Of a DNA stretch of 37,937 nt, positions 1,369 to 37,937 are shown one piece after another. Each line of letters starts with the position of its first letter. Within the stretch, counting starts at the first letter, position 1. The notes beneath the pieces were generated by a model. It worked only from the letters and a program-made list of their open reading frames with translations, did not search any database and was not told the DNA's origin. Source of the stretch: a virus (taxonomy: Duplodnaviria; Heunggongvirae; Uroviricota; Caudoviricetes); the IMG/VR virus record IMGVR_UViG_2585427766_000015, one strand, 5' to 3'. Both the position numbers and the translations under genes were made by a program.

Positions 1369-1444
1369 GCCGATATAGCTCAGTTGGTAGAGCAGCGCAT
1401 TCGTAATGCGAAGGTCGTAGGTTCGACTCCTATTATCGGCACCA
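1369..1444 (+). tRNA. thrW: tRNA-Thr (anticodon CGT), 76 nt with encoded CCA
   Basis: GCCGATATAGCTCAGTTGGTAGAGCAGCGCATTCGTAATGCGAAGGTCGTAGGTTCGACTCCTATTATCGGCACCA read directly; acceptor stem, D-loop, anticodon loop CATTCGTAATG and T-loop GGTTCGACTCC all recognisable. Sits immediately upstream of the prophage integrase. Confidence 0.93.
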
Positions 1445-1458
1445 TTTAAATCAATAAG
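1400..1458. other. Prophage left junction (attL region) overlapping the 3' end of thrW; exact core not determinable from one junction
   Basis: Integrase stop codon lies 15 bp after the tRNA 3' end. Phages that integrate into tRNA genes carry the tRNA 3' segment in attP. Confidence 0.4.
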
Positions 1459-2622
1459 TTACACATCATTAGTACCTTCTTTATTTTTTGACTGGGACAA
1501 ATTTGGGACCGATGGGTTCAGGATCGAGTCTATTTGCCGTGCGTGTTCGGTAAGGTGATTAGGTGCAAGGTGAGCATATCGACGAACCATTTCGATAGAC
1601 TCCCAGCCTCCCATTTCCTGTAACACTGACAACGGGACTCCGGCTTGAACCAGCCAACTTGCCCAGGTGTGTCTCAAGTCGTGAAATCTGAAATCATCAA
1701 TACCAGCCCGTCTCAGCGCCGCTTTCCAGGCTGTGTTTGCGTCATACCGCATCTTCCTTACTGTTGGCGCTTTCGTTCCGTCTGGTTTGGTACAGCTTTC
1801 CTTGTACACAAATACCCAACGGTGATGATTCCCGATTTGTTTTTTCAATACGCGACATGCAGTATCATTCAGCGCAACGCCAATTGCGCGGTTTGATTTA
1901 CTCTCTTCCGGGTTTATCCATGCCACCCGGCGCTGCATATCTATTTGTTGCCATTCAAGGTTGATGATGTTCGAGCGTCTTAAACCTGTTGCCAGTGCAA
2001 ATTCAACAACAGACTTTAATGGCTCGGGACATTCATCAATCAGCCTTTGTGCTTCATGGGGCTCCAGCCAGCGGATCCGTTTATTCTTTGGTTGAGGCAC
2101 TTTAATAATTGGTGCCTTATCCAGCATTTTCCATTCACGCTCTGCGGCTCTTAGTAGGGCCTTTATAAATGAAAGATGCGTAGCCTTCGTTGCAACGGAC
2201 GCTGGTTTTGGCGTGTATTCTGGAACAGGTTTCCCTTTTTTTCTGCATGCTTCTGCCCTGAGTTTCCAGTTTTCCTCATGACGCCGGTTCGTCATTTTCT
2301 GCATTGCTGAATAAATTTTTGATTCAGTAATGTCTCTTAGTTGCATTCCTGCGAAATGTTGAAGCCAGAATCCGATCCGGCTTTTGTCATCGTCCAGTGA
2401 TTTTTTATGTGCTTTCTCTTCAAGCCACCTGACACACGCTTCCTCGAACGTTATATCAGGTATTTCACCAAGTTTGCTGACCCGCCATGCTTCAGCCTTT
2501 AGCATGTCATGGAGTTCTGTCGCCTGCCTTTTGTCCTTTGTTCCAAGAGACTGTTTAAATCTTTTACCGTTCGGCAATGTGAAACTGGCGTACCATATTT
2601 CACCTCTGCGGAAGAGTGACAT
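1459..2622 (-). CDS. int: Tyrosine-type site-specific integrase (P22 Int-like), 387 aa
   Basis: N-terminus [39 protein letters not shown] and C-terminal catalytic region ([15 protein letters not shown] ... RYAHL) typical of lambda/P22-family integrases; location adjacent to thrW. Confidence 0.92.
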
Positions 2623-12694: not shown

Positions 12695-12706
12695 TGAAAA
12701 ACTCAC

Positions 12707-16947: not shown

Positions 16948-17079
16948 TGAGTTTCAACAACTATCAACTACATCCAGCGAAGCATAAAAGATCGTTTATG
17001 GCAAAACCGGAATGGAGTGCGATTCGATTCTGAGAAGGGTGCCACGTATCGTACGCGAACCATCCAAGAGGATTATGCA

Positions 17080-17430: not shown

Positions 17431-17456
17431 GAACCAGTTCCCATTGCCAGAGGGGA

Positions 17457-17516
17457 GGGGCGGGTCAAATCCCTGTGACCTGACGTCTTCCGGACTGCCC
17501 GCCCCATCGTTTTTTT
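17457..17516 (+). other. Strong GC stem (GGGGCGGG ... CCCGCCCC) with 33-nt loop followed by a 7-T run, between HNH and terS; terminator-like or packaging-site-associated
   Basis: Read in sequence; function not assignable without experiment. Confidence 0.3.
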
Positions 17517-17546
17517 ATACCCGCGAAAAATGAAATTTAACCAGGA

Positions 17547-19780: not shown

Positions 19781-19791
19781 CTGAGGTAATT

Positions 19792-19974
19792 ATGATCATG
19801 CTGATTCTCGCGCCTCTGGTGGGCGTGCTGGGGGCGCTTTTGCTGGCGTATGGTGCCTGGCTGATTTATCCCCCGGCGGGGTTTGTTGTTGCCGGGGCGT
19901 TGTGCCTGTTCTGGTCGTGGCTGGTAGCGCGATATCTCGACCGTACACAGCTGTCTGTTGGTGGAGGTAAATAG
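19792..19974 (+). CDS. Small hydrophobic (membrane) protein, 60 aa
   Basis: Two predicted transmembrane helices ([22 protein letters not shown] ... [15 protein letters not shown]); between TerL and portal. Confidence 0.35.
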
Positions 19975-21843: not shown

Positions 21844-21857
21844 TCAGGAGAAATACG

Positions 21858-23063
21858 ATGGCGGTTGATATTAAAGATGTCGAACAGGTCGCGCAGGAGC
21901 TGCAGCAGAAGTTTGACGACTTCAAAGCAAAGAACGACAAGCGCGTGGATGCGATTGAGCAGGAAAAAGGCAAGCTTGCCGGGCAGGTGGAAACCCTGAA
22001 CGGGAAACTCAGCGAGCTGGAAAATCTCAAAAGCGACCTTGAAAAAGAGCTGCTTGAGCTGAAACGTCCGGCAGGTGGAGCGCAAAATAAACTGGCCACC
22101 GAGCATAAAGAGGCGTTTGTGGGCTTCCTGCGTAAAGGCCGTGAAGACGGTCTGCGCGATCTGGAGCGTAAGGCATTGCAGGTGGGTACCGATGAAGACG
22201 GTGGCTACGCCGTGCCGGAAGAACTGGATCGCAACATTCTTAACCTGCTGAAAGATGAAGTGGTGATGCGTCAGGAAGCCACGGTGATCACCGTTGGCGG
22301 TTCCGACTACAAAAAACTGGTGAATCTGGGCGGTACGGCTTCCGGATGGGTGGGGGAAACGGATACGCGATCCCAGACTGCCACCTCCAGACTGGAGCTG
22401 ATTGAACCTCTCATGGGGGAAATCTACGGTAACCCGCAGGCCACCCAGAAAATGCTGGATGATGCCTTTTTCAACGTGGAAGCATGGATCAACAGCGAGC
22501 TGGCAACCGAATTTGCCGAACAGGAAGAAATTGCCTTTACTACCGGCGATGGTACCAAGAAGCCGAAAGGGTTCCTGGCGTATGAATCCACTGATGAAAC
22601 CGATAAGGTCCGGGCGTTCGGCAAACTTCAGCATATTGTATCCGGCGAAGCGACGGCGGTGACCGCAGACGCCATTATCAAACTGATTTACACGCTGCGT
22701 AAGGCACACCGCACTGGCGCGAAGTTCATGATGAACAACAACAGCCTGTTTGCCATCCGTCTGCTTAAAGACAGCGAGGGTAACTATCTGTGGCGTCCGG
22801 GGCTGGAACTGGGGCAGCCGTCCTCTCTGGCGGGTTACGGTATCGCTGAAAACGAACAGATGCCGGATATCGCCGCTGATGCGAAAGCCATTGCATTTGG
22901 TAACTTCAAACGGGGTTACACCATCGTTGACCGTATCGGCACCCGCATTCTGCGTGATCCGTACACCAATAAACCGTTTGTCGGTTTTTATACCACCAAG
23001 CGCACCGGCGGGATGCTGGTCGATTCGCAGGCCATCAAACTGCTGAAGATTGCAGCGGCGTAA
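21858..23063 (+). CDS. Major capsid protein (HK97 fold), 401 aa
   Basis: N-terminal coiled-coil delta domain followed by capsid domain; position after the protease. Confidence 0.9.
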   Translation: MAVDIKDVEQVAQELQQKFDDFKAKNDKRVDAIEQEKGKLAGQVETLNGKLSELENLKSDLEKELLELKRPAGGAQNKLATEHKEAFVGFLRKGREDGLRDLERKALQVGTDEDGGYAVPEELDRNILNLLKDEVVMRQEATVITVGGSDYKKLVNLGGTASGWVGETDTRSQTATSRLELIEPLMGEIYGNPQATQKMLDDAFFNVEAWINSELATEFAEQEEIAFTTGDGTKKPKGFLAYESTDETDKVRAFGKLQHIVSGEATAVTADAIIKLIYTLRKAHRTGAKFMMNNNSLFAIRLLKDSEGNYLWRPGLELGQPSSLAGYGIAENEQMPDIAADAKAIAFGNFKRGYTIVDRIGTRILRDPYTNKPFVGFYTTKRTGGMLVDSQAIKLLKIAAA

Positions 23064-23112
23064 TCATTCAGGGGCGCGGAACCGCGCCCCCTGTTCTGAC
23101 GGGTGAAGAATC

Positions 23113-23313
23113 ATGATCCTGAAACAAGATCTGAAATGGTCACCGGACGGTATGCGTGTTGAGGTCATTCGGGCCGGTGAGTATGACGACGGGGCGCTTC
23201 CTGCCCGGGTGCAGGAGATTGCACTTCAGGCCGGGTTAGCAGAGCGCGGAACCAGTGCAAAAAGCAGTAAAGCGGCAAAAGAGAAAAAAGCCACGACCAG
23301 TAAAGAGGGCTGA
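23113..23313 (+). CDS. Hypothetical small head-module protein, 66 aa
   Basis: ORF in the head gene cluster with Lys/Ala-rich C-terminus. Confidence 0.35.
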   Translation: MILKQDLKWSPDGMRVEVIRAGEYDDGALPARVQEIALQAGLAERGTSAKSSKAAKEKKATTSKEG

Positions 23314-23315
23314 GT

Positions 23316-23639
23316 ATGCTTCTGACAATGGAAGAGATTAAAGCCCAACTCCGGCTGGATGAGGATTTCGATGCTGATGACCGCCATCTGCAACTGCTGG
23401 CCTGTGCGGCGCAAAAGCGGACGGAAACGTATCTGAACCGGAAGCTCTATGCACCGGATGAAACCATTCCGGACAGCGATCCGGACGGGCTGCACCTGCC
23501 GGATGATATTCGTCTGGGGATGCTGATGCTTATCAGCCATTTTTACGAAAACCGCTCGTCGGTTACGGAAGTGGAGAAACTCGACATGCCGCAGAGTTTT
23601 GGCTGGCTTGTCGGCCCGTATAGGTACTTTCCGCAATGA
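23316..23639 (+). CDS. Head-tail connector protein (gp6-like), 107 aa
   Basis: Size and position; MEEIKAQLRLDEDFD ... motif typical of gp6-like DNA-packaging/connector proteins. Confidence 0.65.
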   Translation: MLLTMEEIKAQLRLDEDFDADDRHLQLLACAAQKRTETYLNRKLYAPDETIPDSDPDGLHLPDDIRLGMLMLISHFYENRSSVTEVEKLDMPQSFGWLVGPYRYFPQ

Positions 23640-24046
23640 AAATTCGTCAGGCGCAGACCAGCGCAACCTACATTCTGCCGGACCCCGGTGAACTGAATAA
23701 ACGCGTCCTGATCCGCCAGCGGGTGGATATGCCCGCGGATAACTTTGGCGTGGAGCCTCAATACCCGGTTACGTTCCGGACATGGGCGAAGGTTATCCAG
23801 ACCAGTGCCACCACCTGGCAGGAAACCGCGCAGACTGGAGACGCCATCACCCATTACATCACCATTCGCTACCGCCGGGGGATCACCGCTGATTATGAGG
23901 TGGTCTGTGATGACAGTGTGTACCGGGTGAAACGTCAGCGCGATCTGAACGGGGCGCGGCGCTTTCTGCTGCTGGAGTGTACGGAACTGGGCGAATTTAC
24001 GCAGAGTCACGGAGGCAGCAATGGCGACTCCCTTTTTTCACGTTGA
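23636..24046 (+). CDS. Head closure/head-tail adaptor protein, 136 aa
   Basis: Position and size in an HK97-like head-tail joining cluster. Confidence 0.6.
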   Translation: MKIRQAQTSATYILPDPGELNKRVLIRQRVDMPADNFGVEPQYPVTFRTWAKVIQTSATTWQETAQTGDAITHYITIRYRRGITADYEVVCDDSVYRVKRQRDLNGARRFLLLECTELGEFTQSHGGSNGDSLFSR

Positions 24047-24527
24047 TGTTCAGCAGCCCGCGGAGATGCGCTTTAACCGCGCCCGTGTCCGGCGGGCGTT
24101 TGTCACGATTGGGCAGCGTCATATGCGTGATGCCCGTCGGCTGGTGATGCGCCGTGCGCGGTCGGCACCGGGTGAAAACCCCGGTTATCAGACCGGACGC
24201 CTGGCTCGTTCGATTGGTTACATGGTGCCGAGAGCCAGTAAAAAGCGAGCCGGTTTTATGACACGCATTGCCCCTAACCAGCGCAACGGGAAGGGGAACC
24301 GGATGATCTCTGGTGACTTCTATCCGGCGTTTCTGTTTTTTGGTGTCCGGGGAGGAGCAAAACGTCGTCGTAGTCATCATCGTGGTGCATCCGGTGGCAG
24401 CGGCTGGCGGCTGGCTCCACGTAATAACTTTATGGTGGAAACTCTTGAAAAGAACCGCAGCTGGACACGCTATTTTCTGGCGCGGGAATTACGTAAATCA
24501 CTGAAGCCGGAGCGACGACGCAGATGA
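24021..24527 (+). CDS. Neck/tail-completion protein (HK97 gp10-like), 168 aa
   Basis: Position and basic composition; weak family resemblance. Confidence 0.5.
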   Translation: MATPFFHVDVQQPAEMRFNRARVRRAFVTIGQRHMRDARRLVMRRARSAPGENPGYQTGRLARSIGYMVPRASKKRAGFMTRIAPNQRNGKGNRMISGDFYPAFLFFGVRGGAKRRRSHHRGASGGSGWRLAPRNNFMVETLEKNRSWTRYFLARELRKSLKPERRRR

Positions 24528-25084
24528 AACTGACGCCTGTTATTGCTGCGCTGCGTGCCCGCTGCCCGTATTTTGAAAACCGGGTGGCAGGCGCGGCACA
24601 GTTCAAAAATCTGCCGGAGGTCGGAAAGCTGAGACTCCCGGCGGCGTATGTGGTACCGGGGGATGATTCTCCGGGAGAAAACAAAAGCCAGACCGACTAC
24701 TGGCAGGAGCTGAAAGAGGGCTTCTCCGTGGTTGTCATACTGAGTAACGGGCGTGATGAGCGCGGTCAGTTTGCTTCGTATGATGTGGTGGACGATGTCC
24801 GGCAGATGCTCTTTAAGGCCCTGCTGGGCTGGAACCCGGAAGCGTGCGGTAACCCGATTAACTATGACGGCGGCACGCTGCTGGATCTGAATCGTCATGA
24901 GCTGATTTATCAGTTCGATTTTTCGATCATCAGCGAGCTGACCGAAGACGATACCCGCCAGCAGGATGATCTGAACAGTCTGGATGAACTGCAAACGCTG
25001 GCGATTGATGTTGATTATCTCGAGCCCGGTAACGGGCCTGACGGCGATATCGAACATCACACCGAAATAACCCTTCCTTCCTGA
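24524..25084 (+). CDS. Putative tail terminator/completion protein, 186 aa
   Basis: Position immediately upstream of the sheath gene cluster. Confidence 0.45.
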   Translation: MKLTPVIAALRARCPYFENRVAGAAQFKNLPEVGKLRLPAAYVVPGDDSPGENKSQTDYWQELKEGFSVVVILSNGRDERGQFASYDVVDDVRQMLFKALLGWNPEACGNPINYDGGTLLDLNRHELIYQFDFSIISELTEDDTRQQDDLNSLDELQTLAIDVDYLEPGNGPDGDIEHHTEITLPS

Positions 25085-25092
25085 GGATCCTC

Positions 25093-25263
25093 ATGTTTGT
25101 CAAACCTGTTAAAGGGCGGTCAGTTCCTGACCCTGCCCGCGGCGACCTTTTGCCCGCCGAAGGGCGAAATGTTGACGAGAACAACTACTGGCTGCGCCGT
25201 GAAGCAGCGGGTGATATCCGGCGCGTGAATAAAAAGGTGAATACCGATGACGATAAGCTTTAA
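25093..25263 (+). CDS. Small conserved protein preceding tail sheath (DUF2635-like), 56 aa
   Basis: ATG ORF MFVKPVKGRSVPDP ... not in the supplied track (below length cutoff); 3' end overlaps the sheath start. Confidence 0.35.
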   Translation: MFVKPVKGRSVPDPARGDLLPAEGRNVDENNYWLRREAAGDIRRVNKKVNTDDDKL

Positions 25264-26743
25264 CACTATTCCGTCGAATACGCTGGTTCCGTTGTTTTAT
25301 GCGGAAATGGATAACCAGGCGGCGAATACTGCACAGGACAGCGGAGCATCGCTGCTGATTGGTCATGCCAATAACGGTGCAGAGATTGTTGCCAACAGTC
25401 TGGTACTGATGCCGTCGGCAGACTATGCACGCCAGATTTGTGGTGCGGGAAGTCAGCTGGCGCGTATGGTCGAGGCTTATCGCCAGACTGACCCGTTTGG
25501 CGAGCTGTATGTGATTGCCGTTCCTGAATCCACAGGCGCGGCGGCAACAGTTACGCTGACGGTGACCGGGGCAGCAACCGAAACCGGCACGGTGAATGTT
25601 TATGTGGGACGTACCCGCGTGCAGGCACCGGTGACCAACGGCGATAACGTCGCGACGATTGCCAGCAGTATCAAAGATGCCATCAATGCCGTTCCGGCCC
25701 TGCCGTTTACGGCCTCATCTTCGGCTGGTGTGGTTACATTGACCGCTCGCCATAAGGGGCTTTGCGGGAATGAAATTCCTGTCAGCCTCAATTACTACGG
25801 CTTCGGTGGGGGCGAAGTGCTGCCAGCGGGCGTACAGATTGCCGTGGCGACGGGGACCGCCGGAACGGGCGCTCCGGTTCTCACCGGCGCGGTGGCTGCA
25901 ATGGCGGATGAGCCGTTTGATTATATCGGTCTGCCGTTCAACGACACGGCCTCTGTTAACACGCTGGTGACCGAGATGAACGATACCAGCGGTCGCTGGA
26001 GCTATGCGCGTCAGCTGTATGGTCATGTGTATACGGCAAAGGCCGGCACACTGTCAGAACTGGTGAACGCAGGTGACCAGTTTAACCAGCAGCACATCAC
26101 CCTGGCGGGGTACGAAAAAGAGACCCAGACGCCTGCCGACGAGCTGGCAGCCAGCCGTACCGCCCGCGCAGCGGTGTTTATCCGCAACGATCCGGCACGT
26201 CCCACGCAGACCGGTGAGATGGTGGGTATGCTGCCTGCGCCGAAGGGGAAACGGTTCACGATGACCGAACAACAGACCCTGCTGTCTCATGGCGTGGCAA
26301 CGGCGTATGTCGAAAGCGGGGTACTGCGCATTCAGCGTGATGTCACCACGTACAGGAAAAACGCTTACGGGGTTGCGGATAACAGCTACCTCGACAGTGA
26401 GACACTGCATACCAGCGCGTATGTACTGCGCAAACTGAAATCCGTCATTACCAGTAAGTACGGGCGTCACAAGCTTGCCAGTGACGGTACCCGCTTTGGT
26501 CCCGGTCAGGCGATTGTCACCCCGGCGGTGATCAAAGGGGAACTGCTGGCAACCTACCGTCAGCTTGAGCGTGCGGGGATCGTGGAAAACTACGAACTGT
26601 TTAAGCAGTACCTGGTTGTGGAGCGTGATGCCAGCGATCCGAACCGCCTGAACACGCTGTTCCCGCCTGACTATGTTAACCAGTTGCGTGTCTTTGCCGT
26701 GGTTAACCAGTTCCGTCTTCAGTATTCAGAGGAGTCTGCATAA
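25247..26743 (+). CDS. Contractile tail sheath protein (Mu gpL-like), 498 aa
   Basis: Size and gene order (sheath, tube, chaperone, tape measure). Confidence 0.8.
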   Translation: MTISFNTIPSNTLVPLFYAEMDNQAANTAQDSGASLLIGHANNGAEIVANSLVLMPSADYARQICGAGSQLARMVEAYRQTDPFGELYVIAVPESTGAAATVTLTVTGAATETGTVNVYVGRTRVQAPVTNGDNVATIASSIKDAINAVPALPFTASSSAGVVTLTARHKGLCGNEIPVSLNYYGFGGGEVLPAGVQIAVATGTAGTGAPVLTGAVAAMADEPFDYIGLPFNDTASVNTLVTEMNDTSGRWSYARQLYGHVYTAKAGTLSELVNAGDQFNQQHITLAGYEKETQTPADELAASRTARAAVFIRNDPARPTQTGEMVGMLPAPKGKRFTMTEQQTLLSHGVATAYVESGVLRIQRDVTTYRKNAYGVADNSYLDSETLHTSAYVLRKLKSVITSKYGRHKLASDGTRFGPGQAIVTPAVIKGELLATYRQLERAGIVENYELFKQYLVVERDASDPNRLNTLFPPDYVNQLRVFAVVNQFRLQYSEESA

Positions 26744-27099
26744 TGGCCCGTATCGGGGGAACCTGTTATTTCAAAATTGACGGTCAGCAGCTATCGCTGA
26801 CCGGCGGCATTGAGGTGCCCATGAACAGGACGGTCAATGATGACATCATCGGCCTGGACGGTTCAGTGGACCGCAAGGAAACTCACCGTGCGCCCTATGT
26901 CAAAGGGACCTTCAAGGTGCCGAAGAATTTTCCGGTGAGCAAAATCACCTCGTCTGATGAGATGACCATCACTGCCGAGCTGGCGAACGGTCAGGTCTAT
27001 GTACTGTCGTCTGCCTGGCTGCACGGCGAAGCGAACCATAATGCCGAAGAAGGCACGGTTGATCTTGAGTTCCACGGTGAAGAAGGGGATTACCAGTGA
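26743..27099 (+). CDS. Tail tube protein, 118 aa
   Basis: Size and position after the sheath. Confidence 0.7.
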   Translation: MARIGGTCYFKIDGQQLSLTGGIEVPMNRTVNDDIIGLDGSVDRKETHRAPYVKGTFKVPKNFPVSKITSSDEMTITAELANGQVYVLSSAWLHGEANHNAEEGTVDLEFHGEEGDYQ

Positions 27100-27419
27100 T
27101 TGAGCTTGTACTTAAAAAACCGATCATCGCCCACAAAGAAACACTGCATGTGCTGGAAATACGTGAGCCTACGTATGACGAGATTGAGGCGCTGGGGTTC
27201 CCTTTCTCTGTTTCACCTGATGGTGGTATGAAAATGGACAGTCAGGTAGCGCTGAAATATATCCCGCTTCTGGCCGGGATCCCGCGCTCGTCTGCAGCGC
27301 AGATGACGAAGCTGGATATTTTCAAGGCAGGCATGATTGTAATGCGTTTTTTTACCGGCTTGGAGACGGAAGAGACCTCCGGAAGCGATTCTACAATGTC
27401 GCGTGGTTCTGGAAATTAA
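27096..27419 (+). CDS. Tail assembly chaperone, 107 aa (with likely -1 frameshift extension to 27511)
   Basis: Position before the tape measure; T7 slippery run at 27347-27353 with the -1 frame open to 27511. Confidence 0.6.
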   Translation: MIELVLKKPIIAHKETLHVLEIREPTYDEIEALGFPFSVSPDGGMKMDSQVALKYIPLLAGIPRSSAAQMTKLDIFKAGMIVMRFFTGLETEETSGSDSTMSRGSGN

Positions 27420-27503
27420 ACCCCCTTGAACTTCGCCGGACGGCTATTTCCCACTTTGCTGATCTGGAGGCAGAGGCCGTCCGTATAAATGAGGAGATGA
27501 AGC

Positions 27504-29426
27504 ATGGCTGATAATTTTCAGCTGAAAGCCATCATCACCGCCGTTGACAGGCTGTCCGGCCCGCTTAAAGGTATGCAGCGTCAGCTTAAGGGGTTTCAGA
27601 AAGAAGTCTCCAGCCTTGCTCTGGGCGCTGCCGGGGCGGGTACTGCAATAATGGGGGCACTGGCACTCCCTGTAAAATCAGCCATCACCCTTGAATCGAA
27701 GATGGCTGATGTCCGCAAAGTGGTGGACGGTCTGGATACGCCGGATGCGTTTAAGGCCATGACGGAGCAGGTACGCGCTTTGTCTACTGAGCTTCCCATG
27801 TCTGCAGACGGGATCGCGGAAATTGTGGCGGCTGGCGGTCAGGCCGGGATTGCACGTGATGAACTGATGCAGTTTGCCACTGATGCGGTGAAGATGGGCG
27901 TGGCCTTTGATACAACGGCTGAAGAGTCCGGGCAGATGATGGCCCAGTGGCGTACTGCGTTTAATATGACGCAGGATGAAGTGGCCGGGCTGGCTGACAA
28001 AATCAACTACCTTGGTAATACCGGCCCGGCGAATGCGAAGAAAATCTCCGATATTGTTACGCGTATTGGTCCTTTAGGTGGTGTTGCAGGTGTGGCTTCC
28101 GGCGAAATCGCGGCAATGGGGGCAACCATTGCCGGGATGGGCGTGGAGTCAGAAATTGCCGCCACAGGGATCAAGAACTTCATGCTTTCCCTGACCGCGG
28201 GAAATTCCGCGACAAAATCGCAGAAACAGGCATTACGTTTTCTGCGGATCAATCCGAAGAAATTAGCTGCTGATATGCAGAAAGATGCCCGGGGAACCAT
28301 GCTGTCTGTACTGGATGCGATGGCTAAAGTGCCCAAAGAAAAACAGGCAGCTGTGCTGAATGCCCTGTTCGGGAAAGAGTCTCTGGGCGCGATAGCACCT
28401 CTGCTGACTAACCTTGATTTGTTGCGTACCAACTTCAGGCGGGTTGCGGATTCCCAGCAGTATGGCAGTTCGATGCAGAAGGAATATGCTTCGAGGGCAG
28501 CGACGACGGAAAACCAGCTTTTACTTCTGCAAAATCAACTTGATGCCATTTCTTCCACGCTGGGGGAAACGTTTCTTCCTGAGGTTAATGATGGTCTTGA
28601 AGCGGTAAAACCGCTCCTTGAGGAAGTGAGAACGTTTGTCCGTGAAAACCCGGAGCTCGTTAAGACCATTGCTAAAATCGGTCTGGCCTTACTGACGGTG
28701 GGAGCCGCTGCAGGCTCTTTGTCCAGAATTATGAAAGTTCTCGGCGGTGTGATGAATATGACGCCTGCTAAGGGGCTGATTGCTCTTCTGGTTGGTGGCG
28801 CTTACCTCATTATTGATAACTGGGAAACCGTAGGCCCTGTCATAAAAAAAGTCTGGCACGTGGTGGATGAAACGGCGCAGGCGATGGGGGGATGGGAAAC
28901 TGTTCTGAAAGCGATTGCCCTGTTTATGGCAACCAAATGGGTTGCTGACGTTACCAAATCCATTACCGCAGTGACCAGAGAGATGCGTACGCTGGGGAAG
29001 GTATCGGCAGAAACGGGATTGATGGGGAAAGGCCGCGGCTTTATCGGGAAGGCCGGGGTATATGGTTTTCTGGGAACCCTGATGTATGAGCCGGTTAAAG
29101 ATACTCTGGAAAGTGTTGTTCCTGAAGATACGGTTAACTGGCTGGATAATAAAGGGCTGTTTCTGGCTTCAGACTGGACGCCTTTTTTTGATCGTAAAGA
29201 GTACGAGCAGTATCAGGCCAGCCTGAGCCAGTACAAACCCAATGTTCCGCTGTTGAATCCATCTTCTTCCATGACACAGCACAGCGAGCTGAAAGTCACG
29301 TTCGAGAATGCTCCGCCAGGTATGAAGATAATTGATGTACCGGGCAAAGCCGATCCCCTGATGAAAATCACGCACGATGTGGGGTATTCCCCTTTTCGTT
29401 TTCCACGAGAACGCAGTTCTTTTTGA
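27504..29426 (+). CDS. Tail tape measure protein, 640 aa
   Basis: Long Ala/Gly-rich helical protein with hydrophobic segments, in tape-measure position. Confidence 0.85.
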   Translation: MADNFQLKAIITAVDRLSGPLKGMQRQLKGFQKEVSSLALGAAGAGTAIMGALALPVKSAITLESKMADVRKVVDGLDTPDAFKAMTEQVRALSTELPMSADGIAEIVAAGGQAGIARDELMQFATDAVKMGVAFDTTAEESGQMMAQWRTAFNMTQDEVAGLADKINYLGNTGPANAKKISDIVTRIGPLGGVAGVASGEIAAMGATIAGMGVESEIAATGIKNFMLSLTAGNSATKSQKQALRFLRINPKKLAADMQKDARGTMLSVLDAMAKVPKEKQAAVLNALFGKESLGAIAPLLTNLDLLRTNFRRVADSQQYGSSMQKEYASRAATTENQLLLLQNQLDAISSTLGETFLPEVNDGLEAVKPLLEEVRTFVRENPELVKTIAKIGLALLTVGAAAGSLSRIMKVLGGVMNMTPAKGLIALLVGGAYLIIDNWETVGPVIKKVWHVVDETAQAMGGWETVLKAIALFMATKWVADVTKSITAVTREMRTLGKVSAETGLMGKGRGFIGKAGVYGFLGTLMYEPVKDTLESVVPEDTVNWLDNKGLFLASDWTPFFDRKEYEQYQASLSQYKPNVPLLNPSSSMTQHSELKVTFENAPPGMKIIDVPGKADPLMKITHDVGYSPFRFPRERSSF

Positions 29427-29435
29427 GGTCAGTCT

Positions 29436-30812
29436 ATGGATTTATCCTCATTTCCCACCCGACCTTCATTACTTTCGTCGTCTTCAGGCTGGCGTGACAG
29501 ACTTCAGGAGGCGTCATTTCGCGGCGTGTCGTTTAAGGTTGAAGAAGAAAGTGCGGGAACCGGTCGCCGTGTGGAAACACATGAATACCCGAACCGCGAC
29601 AAACCCTATACCGAAGACCTGGGGAAAATCACTTTTTGCCCGTCCATCACGGCTTATGTGGTGGGAGATGACTGCTTTGACCAGCGCGATCGCCTGATTG
29701 ACGCGCTGAATAAACCCGGTCCCGGCACGCTTGTCCATCCGACATACGGTGAGCTGAAAGTCTGTGTTGACGGAGAAGTTCGGGTCAGCACATCGAAAAG
29801 TGAAGGGCGTATTGTCCGCTTTGACCTGAAGTTTGTCGAAGCGGGAGAACTCTCTTACCCCACATCAGGTGCGGCGACGGCGCAGACGCTGATGTCATCC
29901 TGTTCTGCACTGGATGACTGCATCAGTGACAGCTTCAGCGGTTTCAGTATCGATGGCGTGGCGGATTTTGTGCAGAACGACGTCGTTGGTAATGCCGGCA
30001 CAATGCTTGGGTATATTTCTGATGCGATGAAAGTGGTGGATTCTGCCGTATCGGATGCTGCCAGGCTGTTGCAGGGGGATATCTCGGTACTTCTGCCGCC
30101 ACCATCGTCAGGCAAAAATTTCGTTGAGCAGGTGCAGAAAATGTGGCGTACCGGGAAACGCCTTTATGGTAACGCCAGCGACCTGGTCACCATGATCAAA
30201 ACGCTTTCCGGTGTCAGCCTCGGCAGCGATCTGCAACCGCGCGGCGTCTGGAAAACGGACAGTAAAACCACCGCCACGGCGACGCAGCAGCGTAATGTGG
30301 TTGCCAGCACTCTTCGTACGACCGCAATCAGCGAAGCGGCGTATGCCGTCACCCGATTGCCTGCGCCAACAACTTCCGCGGTGATGCAGAATTCCGCAGT
30401 GGGGCAGGCAACAACACCTGCGCAGAGCACTGGTTGGCCTTCCGTCACGCATCCGGCACTGAACAATGCACCGGCGGTGAAAAACACGGTTGACCTGCCA
30501 ACGTGGGAAGAACTGACCGACATTCGCGACACACTGAATACGGCAATTGATAAGGAGTTGTCCCGTACAACCAGTGATGCGCTGTTTCTGGCGCTGCGCC
30601 GGGTGAAAGCAGATCTGAATGCGGATATCAACACGCGCCTTGAACAGTCTGCACGGATCATTCAGCGCACGCCGGATGAGGTTTTACCCGCGCTGGTGCT
30701 GGCGGCGACCTGGTTTGATAACGCGGCGCGTGACGCGGACATTATCCGGCGTAATGCCATTACGCATCCTGGCTTTGTGCCGGTGATCCCTCTGAAGGTG
30801 CCAGTGCAATGA
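29436..30812 (+). CDS. DNA circulation protein (Mu gpN-like), 458 aa
   Basis: N-terminal WRDRLQEASFRGVSFKVEE motif typical of Mu N-like proteins. Confidence 0.75.
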   Translation: MDLSSFPTRPSLLSSSSGWRDRLQEASFRGVSFKVEEESAGTGRRVETHEYPNRDKPYTEDLGKITFCPSITAYVVGDDCFDQRDRLIDALNKPGPGTLVHPTYGELKVCVDGEVRVSTSKSEGRIVRFDLKFVEAGELSYPTSGAATAQTLMSSCSALDDCISDSFSGFSIDGVADFVQNDVVGNAGTMLGYISDAMKVVDSAVSDAARLLQGDISVLLPPPSSGKNFVEQVQKMWRTGKRLYGNASDLVTMIKTLSGVSLGSDLQPRGVWKTDSKTTATATQQRNVVASTLRTTAISEAAYAVTRLPAPTTSAVMQNSAVGQATTPAQSTGWPSVTHPALNNAPAVKNTVDLPTWEELTDIRDTLNTAIDKELSRTTSDALFLALRRVKADLNADINTRLEQSARIIQRTPDEVLPALVLAATWFDNAARDADIIRRNAITHPGFVPVIPLKVPVQ

Positions 30813-31888
30813 ACGACAATGTCACGCTACGGGTAAATGGCCGGGAGTGGAATGGCTGGACATCGGTGCGCATCGGTGCCGGTATTGAACGGCTGGCGCG
30901 GGATTTCAGTGTGGAGATCACCCGCCAGTGGCCGGGAGATGAGGGTATTACCACGCTTCAGCCGCGCATTAAAAACGGTTCAAAAGTGGAGGTGTTGATT
31001 GGTGATGAGCTGGTGATCACCGGCTGGGTGGAGGCGACGCCCGTTCGTTACGATGCCCGTTCGGTCAGCACCGGTATTGCCGGACGCAGTCTGACCGCTG
31101 ACCTGATTGACTGTGCAGCCGAACCGACACAGTTTAACGGACGATCGCTGGTACAGATTGCGCAGGCGCTTGCTGCGCCTTTCAGCATTGAGGTGGTGAA
31201 CAACGGTGCGCCGTCGGGTGTTATTCCTGATGTCCAGCCTGATCACGGTGAAACGGTGATTGAGGTAATCAACAAAATACTCGGTCAGCAGCAGGCACTG
31301 GCTTACGACGACCCGCACGGCAGGCTGGTGATTGGCGGTATTGGCTCAACGCGGGCACATACTGCGCTGGTACTCGGGGAAAACATCCTTTCCTGCGATA
31401 CGGAGAAGAGTATCCGGGAGCGGTTTTCTGTTTACCAGGTGGCGGGGCAGCGTGCCGGAAACGACGATGATTTCGGTGAGGCCACCACCACCGCGCTGCG
31501 GGCCCGCACAGAGGACGCATTTATTGCCCGTTACCGTCCGATGTATATCAGGCAGACAGGGCAGGCTACGGGGGCAGGCTGTATTGCCCGTGCGGACTTT
31601 GAAGCCCGACAACGGGCGGCGCGGACGGATGAAACCACCTATGTGGTGCAGGGCTGGCGACAGGGTAATGGTACGCTGTGGCAGCCCAACCAGCGGGTGA
31701 TTGTTTTTGATCCGGTCTGTGGTTTCGACAATACCGAACTGCTTGTTTCGGAAGTCACGTTTACTCAGGACCATAACGGCACTCTGACGGAAATCCGTGT
31801 CGGCCCACCTGATGCTTATCTGCCTGAACCCGAAGCCCCCGGCGCGCGGAAAAAGAAAAAAGCCAGAGTACAGGAGGACCCGTTCTGA
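30809..31888 (+). CDS. Baseplate hub/tail protein (Mu gpP-like), 359 aa
   Basis: Gene order in a Mu-like baseplate cluster. Confidence 0.7.
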   Translation: MNDNVTLRVNGREWNGWTSVRIGAGIERLARDFSVEITRQWPGDEGITTLQPRIKNGSKVEVLIGDELVITGWVEATPVRYDARSVSTGIAGRSLTADLIDCAAEPTQFNGRSLVQIAQALAAPFSIEVVNNGAPSGVIPDVQPDHGETVIEVINKILGQQQALAYDDPHGRLVIGGIGSTRAHTALVLGENILSCDTEKSIRERFSVYQVAGQRAGNDDDFGEATTTALRARTEDAFIARYRPMYIRQTGQATGAGCIARADFEARQRAARTDETTYVVQGWRQGNGTLWQPNQRVIVFDPVCGFDNTELLVSEVTFTQDHNGTLTEIRVGPPDAYLPEPEAPGARKKKKARVQEDPF

Positions 31889-32436
31889 TGAGGACGATTG
31901 AAGCCATGCAGCGACAACTCCTCGGCCTGATTGGGCGGGCCGTGGTGAAAAGCATCAGTGCCGCCACGAAATGTCAGACCGTGGATGTGTCCCTGATTGC
32001 CGGTGAACCCAAAGCCGGGGTTGAACATCTTGAACCCTACGGTTTTACCGCAAGGGCAAACAGCGGTGCGGAAGCGGTGGTGTTGTTTCCGGATGGCGAC
32101 CGTTCTCATGCGGTGGTTGTTACGGTGTCGGACCGGCGCTACCGCCTGAAAGGGCTGCAGACGGGTGAGGTGGCTGTCTATGACGATCAGGGGCAGTCCG
32201 TGACGCTGACCCGGGAGGGGATCGTGGTGGACGGTGCTGGTAAAACGATCACGTTTCGCAATTCACCTAAAGCACGTTTTGAAATGGACCTGGAAGTGAC
32301 AGGACAGGTGAAAGACCTGTGCGACTCCGGCGGCACCACCATGTCAGCGATGCGGCTTGCCTATAACGGGCGTCGTCACAGAGAGAACGGTCAGGGCAGT
32401 AACACCGACAAACCTGATAAAGCGATGGAGGCATGA
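31888..32436 (+). CDS. Baseplate assembly protein V (spike, Mu gp45-like), 182 aa
   Basis: Family resemblance and position. Confidence 0.75.
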   Translation: MRTIEAMQRQLLGLIGRAVVKSISAATKCQTVDVSLIAGEPKAGVEHLEPYGFTARANSGAEAVVLFPDGDRSHAVVVTVSDRRYRLKGLQTGEVAVYDDQGQSVTLTREGIVVDGAGKTITFRNSPKARFEMDLEVTGQVKDLCDSGGTTMSAMRLAYNGRRHRENGQGSNTDKPDKAMEA

Positions 32437-32861
32437 TGGAACTGTGGCTGACGGTGAACGGTAAACGCACCTGCGCCAGCGCACAGCTGGATCCGCTGAC
32501 CCGCGCCGTGGTGATTTCCCTGTTTACCTGGCGGCGGGCGGAGCCTGATGACAACGCCGACGTCCCGATGGGATGGTGGGGGGATACCTGGCCTGCGGTA
32601 CAGAATGACCGTTACGGCTCCCGATTGTGGCTGCTTCAGCGCAGCAAACTGACCAATCAGCTGGTGCAGACGGTAAGGGGATATATCCGCGAATGCCTGC
32701 AATGGATGATTGATGACGGCGTAGTGTCCCGTATTGATCTGGATATCCGCCGCACCGGGATTAATGAGCTGGGTAACAGTATCACCCTCTGGCGTCGTGA
32801 CGGACCGGTAATGATTTCTTTTGATGATCTGTGGAGTGCGATAACGCATGGCGGACAGTGA
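32433..32861 (+). CDS. Baseplate protein (Mu gp46-like), 142 aa
   Basis: Position and size. Confidence 0.65.
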   Translation: MMELWLTVNGKRTCASAQLDPLTRAVVISLFTWRRAEPDDNADVPMGWWGDTWPAVQNDRYGSRLWLLQRSKLTNQLVQTVRGYIRECLQWMIDDGVVSRIDLDIRRTGINELGNSITLWRRDGPVMISFDDLWSAITHGGQ

Positions 32862-33906
32862 ATTTCAGCGCCCGACGCTGGCAGAAAATATCAGTATGCT
32901 CCGTAACGATTTATTCGCCAGGCTGGACGTCAGCGACACGCTCCGGCGCATGGATGAAGACGTGCGGGCAAAGGTGTATGCGGCGGCGCTGCATACGGTT
33001 TACGGGTACATCGATTATCTGGCAATGAACATGCTGCCTGACCTGTGCGATGAGTCCTGGCTGGCGCGACATGCTGCGATGAAACGGTGTCCGCGCAAGG
33101 GGGCCACGGCTGCCAGCGGGTATATGCGCTGGGAAGGTGTCAGCGATGGCCTGAAGGTGACCGCCGGGAGTGTTATTCAGCGCGATGACCTGGTTCAGTA
33201 TACTGCAACTGCCGATGCAACCAGCTCCGGTGGTGTCCTGCGCGTGCCGATCGCCTGCTCAAATGCAGGCGCGGTCGGTAACGCTGACGACGGTACGGCA
33301 TTAATCCTGGTCACGCCGGTGAATGGTCTGCCGTCTTCCGGTGTGGCTGACACCCTGACAGGCGGATTTGATACTGAAGAGCTGGAAACGTGGCGCGCCC
33401 GCGTCATTGAGCGGTATTACTGGACGCCGCAGGGCGGGGCTGACGGGGACTATGTCGTCTGGGCTAAAGAAGTGCCCGGCATTACCCGCGCATGGACATA
33501 CCGTCACTGGATGGGAACGGGAACTGTCGGTGTGATGATTGCCAGCAGTGACCTGATTAATCCCATTCCGGAAGAATCAACGGAAACGGCGGCAAGACAA
33601 CATATCGGGCCACTGGCCCCGGTGGCAGGCTCTGATTTGTATGTGTTCAGGCCGGTGGCACATACGGTGGATTTTCATATCCGCGTGACGCCGGACACAC
33701 CGGAAATACGGGCTGCCATCACCGCGGAGTTGCGTTCGTTCCTGCTGCGTGATGGTTATCCGCAGGGAGAACTGAAGGTATCGCGTATCAGTGAGGCGAT
33801 TTCCGGTGCGAACGGGGAATACAGCCATCAGTTGCTTGCACCGGCAGACAATATCTCCATTGCAAAAAATGAACTGGCGGTACTGGGGACGATTTCATGG
33901 ACGTGA
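32848..33906 (+). CDS. Baseplate J-like protein (Mu gp47-like), 352 aa
   Basis: Size, position, family resemblance. Confidence 0.8.
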
Positions 33907-34481
33907 CAAACGATGATTACATCCGTCTGTTGTCGGCACTGTTGCCCCCCGGTCCGGCGTGGTCAGCCAGCGATCCGTCGATTGCCGGTGCGGCACCGTC
34001 ATTAACCCGCGTTCATCAGCGTGCGGATGCCCTGATGCGGGAGCTGGATCCGCGCACCACCACTGAACTGATAAACCGCTGGGAGCGTCTGTGCGGTCTG
34101 CCGGGTGAATGTATTCCCGCAGGGACACAGACCCTTCGCCAGCGTCAGCAACGGCTGGATGCGAAGGTTAACCTGGCGGGCGGCATCAACGAGAATTTTT
34201 ATCTTGCACAGCTTGCTGCCCTGGGCAGACCAGACGCTACCATCAAGCGATACGACAAAAGCACGTTCACCTGCTCATCGGCCTGTACTGACGCGGTGAA
34301 TGCGCCGGAATGGCGGTATTACTGGCAGGTCAACATGCCAGCCGCCACAAACACCACCTGGATGACATGTGGCGATCCCTGTGATTCCGCGCTGCGTATC
34401 TGGGGCGACACCGTTGTCGAATGTGTGCTTAACAAACTCTGCCCGTCGCATACCTACGTAATTTTTAAATATCCGGAGTAA
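33897..34481 (+). CDS. Tail protein (Mu gp48/DUF2313-like), 194 aa
   Basis: Position after the J-like protein, before the fibre. Confidence 0.65.
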
Positions 34482-34484
34482 TCC

Positions 34485-35546
34485 ATGCATCGTATAGACA
34501 CGAAAACCGCGCAGAAGGATAAGTTCGGCGCGGGTAAGAACGGTTTTACCCGTGGTAACCCACAGACTGGCACACCTGCCACCGATCTGGATGATGACTA
34601 CTTTGATATGTTGCAGGAAGAACTCTGCAGCGTGGTGGAGGCATCCGGTGCCAGCCTGGAGAAGGGGCGAAACGACCAGTTGCTTACCGCGCTTCGTGCG
34701 CTGCTGTTAAGTCGTAAAAATCCGTTTGGCGATATCAAATCGGATGGCACTGTGCAAACGGCTCTCGAAAACCTGCAATTGAGAGAATCATTTTCTGGCG
34801 TTGTTGGGCAATCGCGAAATGCCAGAATGTTAGTGGCTGCCGCGAGTGTTACAGCGACATTTTCAGCCGATGAGTTGATTGTTGAAGATGGTGATGGACG
34901 CCAGTATCGATTGAGTAATTTCAATAAATCTGTAGATCTGATGAATACTGGGGCTGGTGGTATGGATACGGGGACAGTGCCGGAAACAGGATTTGTTGCT
35001 TTGTATGCGATTTATAATCCGACTACTTATATGTCGTCATTGCTTGCGGTAAACGCAACCACCGCTGGATTGCCAGAGATTTATGGTGGTTCGGCATTAC
35101 CTCATGGCTATACTGCCAGCGCACTGGTAAGTGTTTGGGGTATTTCAAAATCAAAATTCAAAACTGGAATGCAACATGGGCGGGTAATTAACACTGACCG
35201 TCAGATAGCAATAACAACAACCGCAAAAATAAACAATCTAACTGAGTTATCTATTGCCTCGATTGTTCCAAAAAATGCAAGAAAAGTGAGCGGCTATGGT
35301 TCTATCTATGCAACATCAGGTGATGAGAAATCGGGCGGTTTAATTATAGATGTCGCATCCACCAGTAGTGGTGTTGGACGCGTATCAATCGGTGGGTATG
35401 TTGGGAATTATGGTATAGGGGTTTATGGTCAGTTTACAGAATTATTGCTATCAACCCCGCAATCAATTTTTTATGACGTGAATCCAGACGGCACATCAAT
35501 CACGGAGTTTTCTGCATCATTATTTATCAGTGGGTATACGATATGA
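34485..35546 (+). CDS. Tail fibre protein, 353 aa
   Basis: Conserved fibre N-terminus ([47 protein letters not shown]) with divergent, lower-GC C-terminal region. Confidence 0.7.
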
Positions 35547-35707
35547 TTTATGCCGAATTAACACCAGATGAAAAGTCAATTGTTGCATTGTTCTCATGTG
35601 AGCAAGAAAATACTACGCAGATTCATAAAAATGATGTGCGCTATATTGAGTTTTATAACCTACAACCAAAGTTCATTCAGAAGCTACTGCCTACACCGGC
35701 GGTATAA
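35543..35707 (+). CDS. Hypothetical small ORF after tail fibre, 54 aa
   Basis: ATG overlapping the fibre stop; AT-rich; below the track cutoff; weak. Confidence 0.25.
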
Positions 35708-36065
35708 GGAACATGCCAATGACTGACTTGTTTCCCGGAGGCATAGTCCTGGCGGGATTTGATGTATCAACGCGCATCAGCAGATATTGAATAGCACGAT
35801 ATGCTTGTATAGGGAATTCTATCAGATATAATTGATGAGGCTGAACTGTGACACACAAAACGTTGCACTGGAATGTAATGTTTTGAATGCTTCTATGTTG
35901 AGGATGTAACGTGGTTTGAACTATTTACAGTATATATGATTATTCTACATATTGATGTCGATATGTATGAATGTTTTTATAAGTGAAGTGCATGCGAATA
36001 ATTCGCAATATGATTAGAGTCAATGTAATAGTTATTGACTCTAATTTATTACAAAATAACTTTAT

Positions 36066-37133
36066 TTAATGAAATTTAGTTCGGATGAATTGTTGCGATG
36101 GTTTTTCAATGAGTATATATGACATATAGCTAATTGCTATTAATGTAAGCATGAACAAAATGAATACATTGGGGCTGTAAAAAATATCGCGTCCATAGCC
36201 AATCTTGTCAGCTAAATAAACAACAATGATTTGCAAAGGAAAATGTAAAAGATAAGATGAATAACTGATATCACCCAACCATTCAATTTTCTTCCCAAAA
36301 TCGTTTCGTATTGCGCTAATTGATACAAGGAAAAAGATTATGGAGGTAAATCCGAATAAGATAATTGAGAATATGTCTGCTACTTGCAGGGTAAAAATAA
36401 ATCCCCATGAGATCAATAGAAAAACACAAGCAAAAATAAAAAATAATTTTGCACCAATATTTTTTATGACCGCAATCGTAATTTTATAGGTCAGGCCACC
36501 AATAAAGAAAGAGAATGCGCCAATCATTATGGGATTGTTAATTTTGAAAAAGTAGTACGACAATGCAACTATTAAAATTGATATGAATGTTGTTTTTGAT
36601 GTGAACTTGCATAATATAAAAAATATCATGTACATAAGTACTTCAATCGACACGGACCATGTCGGGGCGTTGAAGGACCAACCTCGCTCAAATCCCCATG
36701 ATTGAATCATCAATAAATTCAGAATGGCATGGTAAATGTCATTCATAGGATAAACAAAAAAATAATTATGACTTTTAAAGAAAATAATTTGTAATATTGC
36801 CACGACAGCAAATGTAAATATGTAAAGTGGATATAATCTACTGACACGGTTAACTATAAAAGTTTTTGCTGAGGTTTTATTGCTGTGTATGTTGTCAGCG
36901 TATAGATAAAAAAATATGAATCCAGAAATCATAAAAAACAATTCGACAGCATATAAACCGTAATGATAAAAGACGGAAAAAAATTCATAAAAAGGTTGGC
37001 GGTTTATGATTATGTCAGATGCAGCATTCTTTTTCATAAAAAAATGTTGCCAATGCCATAACACAACGGAAAGTGCGGCAAATCCTCTCAGAACATCCAG
37101 GGTATATATTCTCTTCCCAAAAACATTCGTCAC
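36066..37133 (-). CDS. Acyltransferase family 3 integral membrane protein (putative O-antigen/cell-surface polysaccharide acetyltransferase), 355 aa
   Basis: Multi-pass membrane protein with acyltransferase_3 hallmarks (LDVLRGFAALSVVLWH); very low GC; opposite orientation at the tail-fibre end of the prophage. Confidence 0.85.
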   Translation of the reverse strand: MTNVFGKRIYTLDVLRGFAALSVVLWHWQHFFMKKNAASDIIINRQPFYEFFSVFYHYGLYAVELFFMISGFIFFYLYADNIHSNKTSAKTFIVNRVSRLYPLYIFTFAVVAILQIIFFKSHNYFFVYPMNDIYHAILNLLMIQSWGFERGWSFNAPTWSVSIEVLMYMIFFILCKFTSKTTFISILIVALSYYFFKINNPIMIGAFSFFIGGLTYKITIAVIKNIGAKLFFIFACVFLLISWGFIFTLQVADIFSIILFGFTSIIFFLVSISAIRNDFGKKIEWLGDISYSSYLLHFPLQIIVVYLADKIGYGRDIFYSPNVFILFMLTLIAISYMSYILIEKPSQQFIRTKFH

Positions 37134-37606
37134 AACGAACCTCTTTTAATAAAGTCAAGTGATAATGAAAGATAAATATTGTAAACGAAAAAACACTGGA
37201 CTGGAACATATATCTCTGCCTGTAATTTAACCAAGATAATTTTACTAACGCAGTCATAATTCGTTCATGTATACCAGATGAAAGTACATGTTCTATGAAA
37301 TAGGGTTTTGCCTGGAGTTTGAAGGTTTTTAACGATTATACCTGTTTAATCGACTCCCCATGTTTTTTGACATTATCCACCGCACACGATACTGGATGCC
37401 AGGTAAACTGATTTGCTGGCATAAAGTCACTGAGAATTTTTTACCAACAATATCTTGCCACATCTTTTCCCGCACAGTTTCGGCAATAGAATCAGCGGGC
37501 AGCGGTCATCAATATTCACCAGACATTGATCTGCCGCACTATCTGACCGGTGTCCTGCTGAGAATACTAATTTCTTTTTTTGCAAGTGCTGTCCAATCAT
37601 GATTGG

Positions 37607-37937
37607 GGTGATGCTGCCAACTTACTGATTTAGTGTATGATGGTGTTTTTGAGGTGCTCCAGTGGCTTCTGTTTCTATCAGCTGTCCCTCCTGTTCAGCT
37701 ACTGACGGGGTGGTGCGTAACGGCAAAAGCACCGCCGGACATCAGCGCTATCTCTGCTCTCACTGCCGTAAAACATGGCAACTGCAGTTCACTTACACCG
37801 CTTCTCAACCCGGTACGCACCAGAAAATCATTGATATGGCCATGAATGGCGTTGGATGCCGGGCAACCGCCCGCATTATGGGCGTTGGCCTCAACACGAT
37901 TTTCCGCCATTTAAAAAACTCAGGCCGCAGTCGGTAA
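37607..37937 (+). mobile_element. IS1 insertion sequence, left end (partial; continues beyond window)
   Basis: Terminal inverted repeat GGTGATGCTGCCAACTTACTGATTTAGTGTATGATGGTG followed by insA. Confidence 0.9.
37662..37937 (+). CDS. insA: IS1 InsA protein, 91 aa
   Basis: [91 protein letters not shown] matches recalled IS1 InsA. Confidence 0.93.

Follow-up and report, generated by a model that had tools for sequence, protein, structure and literature searches.

An AT3 membrane acyltransferase on a mobile low-GC cassette of an SfV-like prophage, a candidate O-antigen-modifying conversion gene

IMG/VR virus record IMGVR_UViG_2585427766_000015, a stretch of 37,937 nucleotides that we refer to as the window, contains a prophage of an E. 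coli chromosome with a gene for a 355-amino-acid membrane acyltransferase on its minus strand (36066..37133). We consider it fairly probable that this is a lysogenic-conversion gene in the accessory region of an SfV-like temperate myovirus, and that it encodes a stand-alone inner-membrane enzyme of the acyltransferase 3 (AT3) family with a mannose-type O antigen as its likely acceptor. The gene and both its flanks make up a mobile low-GC cassette of 1.63 kb (35974..37606, delimited by megablast) that travels on different phage backbones and is tied to host O-antigen type. Neither property appeared in the earlier note on this DNA, which was made from the sequence alone and proposed a candidate O-antigen-modifying conversion gene; as a candidate, the proposal is supported by the genomic slot, the AT3 motifs, purifying selection, the contexts of relatives, and the restriction of the cassette to certain O types.

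The allele in the window is intact. It starts with GTG (37131-37133), preceded at a spacing of 6 nt by the Shine-Dalgarno sequence AAGAGG (37140-37145). The product matches Acyl_transf_3 (PF01757; E=4e-25, 89 bits against a Pfam cut-off of 31) from residue 10 to residue 336 of 355, corresponding to profile positions 2-322 of 326, and so belongs to the AT3 family by a score above the gathering threshold across the whole domain. This is its sole Pfam domain. Among the PHROG families it matches phrog_3333, annotated ‘O-acetyltransferase’ (E=3e-41). An AlphaFold2 model (pLDDT 91.7, pTM 0.90) has ten long helices, and the protein is predicted to adopt the AT3 fold of ten transmembrane helices (TM); it stops after helix 10 and lacks both an 11th helix and a C-terminal SGNH domain, which is the AT3-only architecture. 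Three motifs that are conserved or essential in AT3 proteins, R/K-X10-H (H25 in OafA), FFXISG and RXXR (PMC7448272), are all present: R16-X10-H27 in TM1, FFMISG at 66-71 in TM2, and RVSR at 96-99 at the cytoplasmic end of TM3. Across 49 homologues R16, H27, F66, F67, S70, G71, R96 and R99 are invariant. The protein matched no family among the PADLOC defence-system models at E<=0.001, and a sequence search of the PDB returned no match. The earlier description of a 355-residue multi-pass membrane acyltransferase, encoded opposite to the structural genes in an AT-rich segment, thus holds in each part: the minus-strand gene converges on the plus-strand tail genes, and its GC content is 0.319 (GC3 0.334) versus 0.556 in the structural genes (17000-34500). 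The low-GC tract begins in the C-terminal half of the fibre gene (GC 0.43) and extends as far as an IS1 element at 37607.

Comparison of alleles gives dN/dS ratios of 0.10-0.32, indicating purifying selection, and the exact protein of the window is found on 32 contigs, all from E. coli. A run of seven T (37038..37044; minus-strand codons H30-F31-F32), identified in the alignments, is the site of one frameshift lesion. In a census of 50 records the tract was identical in 42, carried a substitution in six, and was shortened to T6 in two, and the frame at the tract is intact in 46 of 48 genomes. The T6 genomes, DS26-1 and EH09-18-41, have codons 1-30 out of frame and lose R16 and H27; the protein annotated with 396 amino acids is this frameshifted form. 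With T6 in only two of the 50 records, frequent phase variation by the run can be rejected. Public E. coli alleles also include forms of 307, 288, 283 and 226 amino acids. Those lesions that can be placed (the T6 form and forms truncated after K281-K282) map to homopolymer runs, further examples of which lie at 36756, 36908 and 36977, and the truncated alleles in draft data could be either real decay or homopolymer errors of long-read sequencing.

The prophage setting places the gene where conversion genes are found. The window opens with proA, followed by the tRNA-Thr(CGU) gene thrW with attL and a minus-strand tyrosine integrase (1459-2622), a left end spanning 1369..2622 that was identified with ARAGORN and protein families; the prophage is therefore integrated at thrW. 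Its structural genes share 97-98% DNA identity with the Shigella phages SfIV, SfII, SfI and SfV and with E. coli phage vB_EcoM-720R4, a likeness that breaks off inside the fibre gene near 34774, and by sequence we classify it as a temperate myovirus of the SfV/SfII type. The acyltransferase gene stands at the attR-proximal end, opposite the integrase, and would adjoin attP in the circular phage; it thus lies in the accessory region between the fibre genes and attP/int. The same order is seen in a circular 43,671-bp record from strain CT01 (NZ_CP081794.1), which reads fibre, tail-fibre-assembly gene (tfa), acyltransferase, GIY-YIG gene, restriction-modification pair, dinI, int, and a 5' fragment of dusA at attP; it is evidently such a phage after excision. 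This record and NZ_CP081704.1 from strain AH02, both deposited as ‘plasmids’, are circular copies of the complete phage, and both strains also have a chromosomal copy of the cassette, so the phage appears to excise and is probably active. In this version a Dcm-type methyltransferase and a type II restriction enzyme lie between the acyltransferase and int.

That serotype-converting phages keep O-antigen modification genes at this position, as the earlier note had it, is borne out by SfII, with its acyltransferase and gtr genes, and by oac of Sf6. SfII, whose backbone is 97% identical to the window over the structural genes, carries the acyltransferase gene SfII_25 at the identical place and on the identical strand, directly behind the fibre-assembly gene, and after it ISSfl9, gtrII-gtrB-gtrA and int; gtrABC is not visible in the window before IS1. 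SfII oacD, which we equate with SfII_25, is responsible for 6-O-acetylation of GlcNAc (PMC9558356). Both proteins are of the AT3 family, and the likeness goes no further, since orthology is rejected by BLASTP (E 0.09) and by hhalign (probability 1.4%). In Sf6, oac is convergent to the tailspike gene and adjoins int/attP, an arrangement comparable to that in the window, and its product Oac (OacA) is likewise a stand-alone AT3 protein (333 amino acids, PF01757 E=1e-24), for which acetylation of O antigen and immunity to superinfection are both proven (PMC9558356). The window protein does not fall in the Oac/OacA orthologous group (hhalign probability 76%, E 2e-5, 25% identity over 287 columns; no tblastn match at 1e-5), and the two belong to different subfamilies of one superfamily. 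Moreover, Sf6 is a P22-like podovirus, unlike the window myovirus, and the acceptor of its Oac is the L-rhamnose of a Wzx/Wzy O antigen.

By sequence, the window protein is nearer to the uncharacterised acyltransferase of the Yersinia phages YeP1-3 (hhalign probability 98.8%, E 1e-16, 24-26% identity) than to the Shigella phage enzymes. These phages share the module order baseplate J, YmfQ, tail fibre, small open reading frame (ORF), AT3, dinI, int, and their fibre tip is 44.6% identical to that of the window; their acyltransferase gene, however, lies on the strand of the tail genes, whereas that of the window is on the opposite strand. OafA and OafB of Salmonella have the three AT3 motifs in common with the window protein, together with a proposed acetyl-CoA route, but extend to an 11th helix and to a periplasmic SGNH domain, which carries out the final transfer; the window protein ends before both. 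OafB is itself borne by a prophage, BTP1 (PMC9558356). The solved eukaryotic transmembrane acyl-CoA acyltransferases HGSNAT and GWT1 show 12-14% identity and have extra domains and different acceptors.

To place the cassette among hosts, we searched 5,426 complete E. coli genomes; 48 carry it, with 95-99% identity, and there is one further copy disrupted by IS1. O types were assigned with chimeric probes that combine the cassette and an O-type marker, such that carriers rank first and co-presence of the marker can then be scored; the O8 wzt probe was taken from IAI1 and the O9 wzt probe from XJW9B263. An O8 wzt gene is present in 35 of the 48 carriers and an O9-family wzt gene in seven, against about 302 and 205 genomes, respectively, in the whole set. 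The frequency of the cassette is 11.6% among O8 genomes, 3.4% among O9 genomes and 0.12% in the remainder, an association with a Fisher odds ratio of 74 (p 9e-38), or of 80 once obvious duplicates are collapsed; clonal relatedness inflates these statistics. Two other carriers, EJN001 and EBJ001, are of an ex-O9 lineage in which wbdC, wbdB and wbdA are intact and IS1 replaces wbdD, wzt, wzm and manBC; EJN001 keeps the cassette only in an IS1-flanked prophage remnant. PD7, the closest relative of the window (98.7%), has an ABC-type ‘O60 family’ locus in which wzm and wzt of that family are accompanied by a methyltransferase gene, a glycosyltransferase gene of 3.1 kb, gmd and an rmd-like gene. 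Including one Wzx/Wzy lineage taken up below, the carriers share, judging by their O loci, the chemistry of mannose or 6-deoxy-mannose, for the most part in polymers that Wzm/Wzt exports. We had also considered wbdC as a proxy for polymannan O types and replaced it with the wzt probes, since it over-calls: IS1-truncated remnant clusters keep this gene. Many E. coli genomes have such O8/O9 remnants beside hisI, with wbdC, wbdB and sometimes wbdA and without wzm/wzt (for example AR Bank #0346, SLDY13 and EJN001), and wbdC is present in 854 genomes versus about 507 with O8 or O9 wzt, so that its presence says little about whether a polymannan locus works.

The cassette is not bound to one phage. 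It occurs on backbones of the thrW type (the window and DS26-1) and of the dusA type (PD7 and CT01), and with two fibre alleles: the common one, ‘StfP-N plus glycine-rich plus tfa’, accompanies it in O8, ex-O9 and Wzx/Wzy-lineage carriers, and the rare one is that of the window. Strict linkage to a single tail-fibre allele is thereby rejected. The C-terminal tip of the window fibre (34775-35546) is 41-56% identical, in best local segments, to fibres of BcepMu, Yersinia and Burkholderia phages. Among complete E. coli genomes, PD7, B27 and EC6 alone have it, and the same three are the only ones with an O60-family wzt; B27 and EC6, which may be related strains, have the tip without the cassette. 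Fibre tips that track host O type argue for the O antigen as receptor, the role it has for the Sf phages. We infer the same for the window phage from these genomes, and its own host was probably of an O60-family O type. The match of fibre tip and O type in three of three genomes offers a concrete phage-receptor prediction.

Relatives of the protein at 44-85% identity are found in two main kinds of genomic context. Those borne by phages adjoin fibre or tailspike genes across four prophage tail types, Mu-like included. A Citrobacter relative (85% identity) occupies the same slot in the same phage type; one from Serratia marcescens (50%) belongs to an E217-like prophage, where it lies amid genes for baseplate and fibre; one from Pantoea (51%) follows the fibre-assembly gene of a lambda-like prophage; and those of Klebsiella aerogenes and K. 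variicola (47-49%) stand beside a Gp53-like fibre gene, with beta-helix tailspikes on the other side in K. aerogenes. The S. plymuthica relative adjoins a P2-like remnant, and that of Kluyvera is alone amid host genes. By contrast with these phage-borne copies, relatives in Pseudomonas savastanoi, Xanthomonas albilineans and Massilia (43-44%) lie within wzm/wzt O-polysaccharide loci that also hold WbdD-like methyltransferases, double glycosyltransferase family 4 (GT4) polymerases, and rhamnose or GDP-sugar genes. We also surveyed representatives of 80 species (35-49% identity), scoring their loci with small tblastn panels: wzm and wzt were both within 10 kb at 11 loci, about nine more had related glycan genes, and one was in a phage tail module; panels of this size left roughly half of the loci unclassified, and 11 Pseudomonas loci with a ‘wzt’ match alone were left out of the count as generic ABC ATPases. 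Taken together, these contexts indicate that the recognisable home of the subfamily outside enteric bacteria is the ABC-transporter O-polysaccharide locus, and that phage carriage is a feature of the Enterobacterales. A locus of similar build with a partly characterised acetyltransferase gene is that of the P. aeruginosa common polysaccharide antigen, a D-rhamnan, where deletion of this gene, PA5458, shifts polymer bands (PMC3560663). With its wzm/wzt genes and WbdD-like methyltransferases the locus resembles in architecture those of the Pseudomonas and Xanthomonas relatives of 40-45% identity; PA5458 is chromosomal, unlike the phage-borne window gene.

These observations suggest how the enzyme might work. 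By analogy with Oac, OafA/OafB and HGSNAT, R16, R96 and R99 would bind cytoplasmic acyl-CoA, most likely acetyl-CoA, and the acyl group would cross the membrane past H27 in TM1 to esterify, at the periplasmic face, a sugar hydroxyl of the undecaprenyl-linked or newly ligated O polysaccharide. The acceptor would likely be a mannose-configured residue, mannose or 6-deoxy-mannose, and most acceptor O antigens would be Wzm/Wzt-exported homopolymers of the E. coli O8, O9/O9a and O60-family type. The altered antigen would change serological and lectin recognition, and lysogens would adsorb the same or related phages less, because phages of this family use the O antigen as receptor. In this scheme the acyl donor and its acceptor, transcription of the gene in the prophage and the exclusion of phages are all inferred. 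A fuller version of this proposal is one we hold only tentatively and would not yet favour: that the cassette is a conversion module O-acetylating ABC-exported polymannose (O8, O9/O9a and O60-family), captured by enterobacterial phages from chromosomal wzm/wzt loci, and that acetylation hides mannose from the fibres of phages and perhaps also from amoebae and mannose-binding lectins. Polymannose O antigens raise the uptake of E. coli by Acanthamoeba, and we speculate that masking mannose could pay off beyond phage exclusion. The O8, O9 and O9a antigens are linear mannans identical to those of Klebsiella (O8 to O5, O9/O9a to O3), according to a review of E. coli O antigens. In textbooks they are ‘plain’ polymannose homopolymers, and we know of no modification of them after export.

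Several points weigh against this assignment of substrate and function. The carrier PC-NDM34 has a Wzx/Wzy locus, containing manC and manB, and a strict rule of ABC-transporter O antigens only is not upheld; CFSAN064035 has the same prophage end and flanks, and with 22AR0322 these carriers (three of the 48) are probably one lineage, whose O locus was read in PC-NDM34. The O-type association could stem from phage host range and clonal structure rather than from the substrate of the enzyme. Term searches of the O-antigen review found no passage on O8/O9 acetylation, which suggests that the proposed modification is unreported, and our literature search found no report linking a prophage acyltransferase to O8/O9-type antigens. 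Promoter and terminator scans gave matches no more numerous than in shuffled sequence. In the window IS1 stands 473 bp upstream of the gene, and in PD7 about 24 bp upstream, right before the Shine-Dalgarno sequence; either insertion may alter expression. Finally, AT3-only enzymes also act on enterobacterial common antigen (ECA), as WecH does, and on other glycans, as proposed for IcaC in the succinylation of poly-N-acetylglucosamine (PMC9558356).

This last point, with the question of host range, leads to a reading that we regard as unlikely and still worth weighing, in which the acyltransferase is a passenger acting on another envelope glycan (ECA, colanic acid or capsule, lipopolysaccharide core, or periplasmic glucans) and the restriction to O8, O9 and O60 reflects the host range of its carrier phages. 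The fibre tip does track host O type independently of the cassette, as B27 and EC6 illustrate; the beta-helix tailspikes that some Klebsiella relatives adjoin are of a kind that often targets capsule; and a 2026 Klebsiella study ties prophage acetyltransferases to K loci. Yet the same O-type restriction persists across two fibre alleles and two integrase backbones, which favours a functional tie between the cassette and those O antigens. The relatives outside phages, moreover, sit in O-polysaccharide wzm/wzt loci rather than in ECA or capsule loci, and every E. coli has ECA, core and glucans, which would not account for retention in about 10% of O types.

We see only a slim chance that the window copy is instead silent or decaying, an AT-rich relic acquired horizontally, severed by IS1 from its regulatory context and conferring no phenotype. 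Pointing that way are the IS1 at 37607 in place of the GIY-YIG gene, the promoter scan, the truncated public alleles, and the EJN001 copy in its prophage remnant; against it stand a full-length ORF with all motifs and a good Shine-Dalgarno sequence, 473 bp of conserved upstream sequence left in place, the low dN/dS, the intact frame at the T7 tract in nearly all genomes, and the recurrence of the exact protein. As to the group transferred, the AT3 family includes non-acetyl transferases (PMC9558356), and sequence does not fix the donor. A charged rather than neutral modification, for example a succinyl group as proposed for IcaC, nevertheless seems to us very improbable, given that the characterised phage-borne AT3 enzymes in that review (Oac/OacA-D, OafB and phiV10) all O-acetylate (PMC9558356) and that the arginine and histidine set of the window protein fits the acetyl-CoA model of OafB. 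The reading as an O-antigen-modifying conversion gene is the one we retain.

Upstream of the fibre gene lie plus-strand genes for baseplate J (32848-33906) and YmfQ/Mu gp48 (33897-34481). The plus-strand fibre gene itself (34485..35546) was identified by PHROG tail-fibre matches, and its N-terminal ~97 amino acids are common to the Sf phages. The acyltransferase gene had been described as lying just past the tail fibre; it does follow the fibre gene, but the two stop codons are 519 bp apart, and the genes are not immediate neighbours. The interval holds three features. A plus-strand ORF of 54 amino acids overlaps the fibre stop (35543..35707; phrog_20339, E=7e-6, with no assigned function) and is weakly similar to a 60-amino-acid ORF at the same position in Yersinia phage YeP1 (E 0.001). 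It is followed by a 49-bp fragment (35734..35782), 91.8% identical by megablast to the 3' ends of tfa genes and with matches in more than 100 genomes and in P1-like plasmids, which is a relic of module exchange at the fibre/acyltransferase junction. Lastly, a repeat search found a perfect 12-bp inverted repeat with a 9-nt loop (36013..36045) between the convergent genes, a candidate bidirectional terminator that is not canonical and was not called by the terminator scan. On the other side of the gene, the 473-bp minus-strand leader (37134..37606), which includes the Shine-Dalgarno sequence, is 95-99% conserved in all cassette copies and is cut at its far side by the left end of IS1 (37607..37937, plus strand; left inverted repeat, IRL, GGTGATGCTGCC..., and insA at 37662-37937, identified by the Pfam/NCBIfam InsA models). 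Other genomes carry a LEM-3-like GIY-YIG gene at this point. The insertions in the window and PD7, the two closest alleles, are independent and have the same orientation, with IRL toward the acyltransferase gene. A scan of 35400-37937 against Rfam found no meaningful family.

Elsewhere in the window, three further minus-strand ORFs (11831-12706, 15924-16550 and 16594-16947) form low-GC islands (0.36-0.41) amid plus-strand phage genes and are other candidate morons: one encodes an NYN-domain protein (phrog_5783, with weak PADLOC matches to NYN/HEC-09), and the other two (phrog_12494 and phrog_14397), with no assigned function, shortly precede the packaging genes. A plus-strand phage DNA methyltransferase gene lies at 13449-14501 (PADLOC MTase_II, E=4e-151; PHROG DNA methyltransferase), and we noticed no neighbouring restriction gene. 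In CFSAN064035 and PC-NDM34, a P4-like element with the antiviral reverse-transcriptase pair Drt3a/Drt3b lies about 8 kb past the prophage end.

Through O-antigen acetylases encoded by phages, bacteria classically gain new serotypes and resistance to phages. Characterised cases include those of Shigella, Salmonella, P. aeruginosa and E. coli O157, and to this well-known group of phage-borne AT3 enzymes the window adds an uncharacterised member, carried as a mobile cassette. The cassette, found in about 12% of O8 genomes, would serve as an easily scored genomic marker, and the sequenced strain IAI1 carries both the cassette and the O8 locus. If mannans of the O8/O9 type are indeed acetylated by this enzyme, there would be a hidden layer of variation in the model O antigens of the ABC-transporter pathway, antigens shared with Klebsiella as its O5 and O3, for which use as antibody targets has been proposed.

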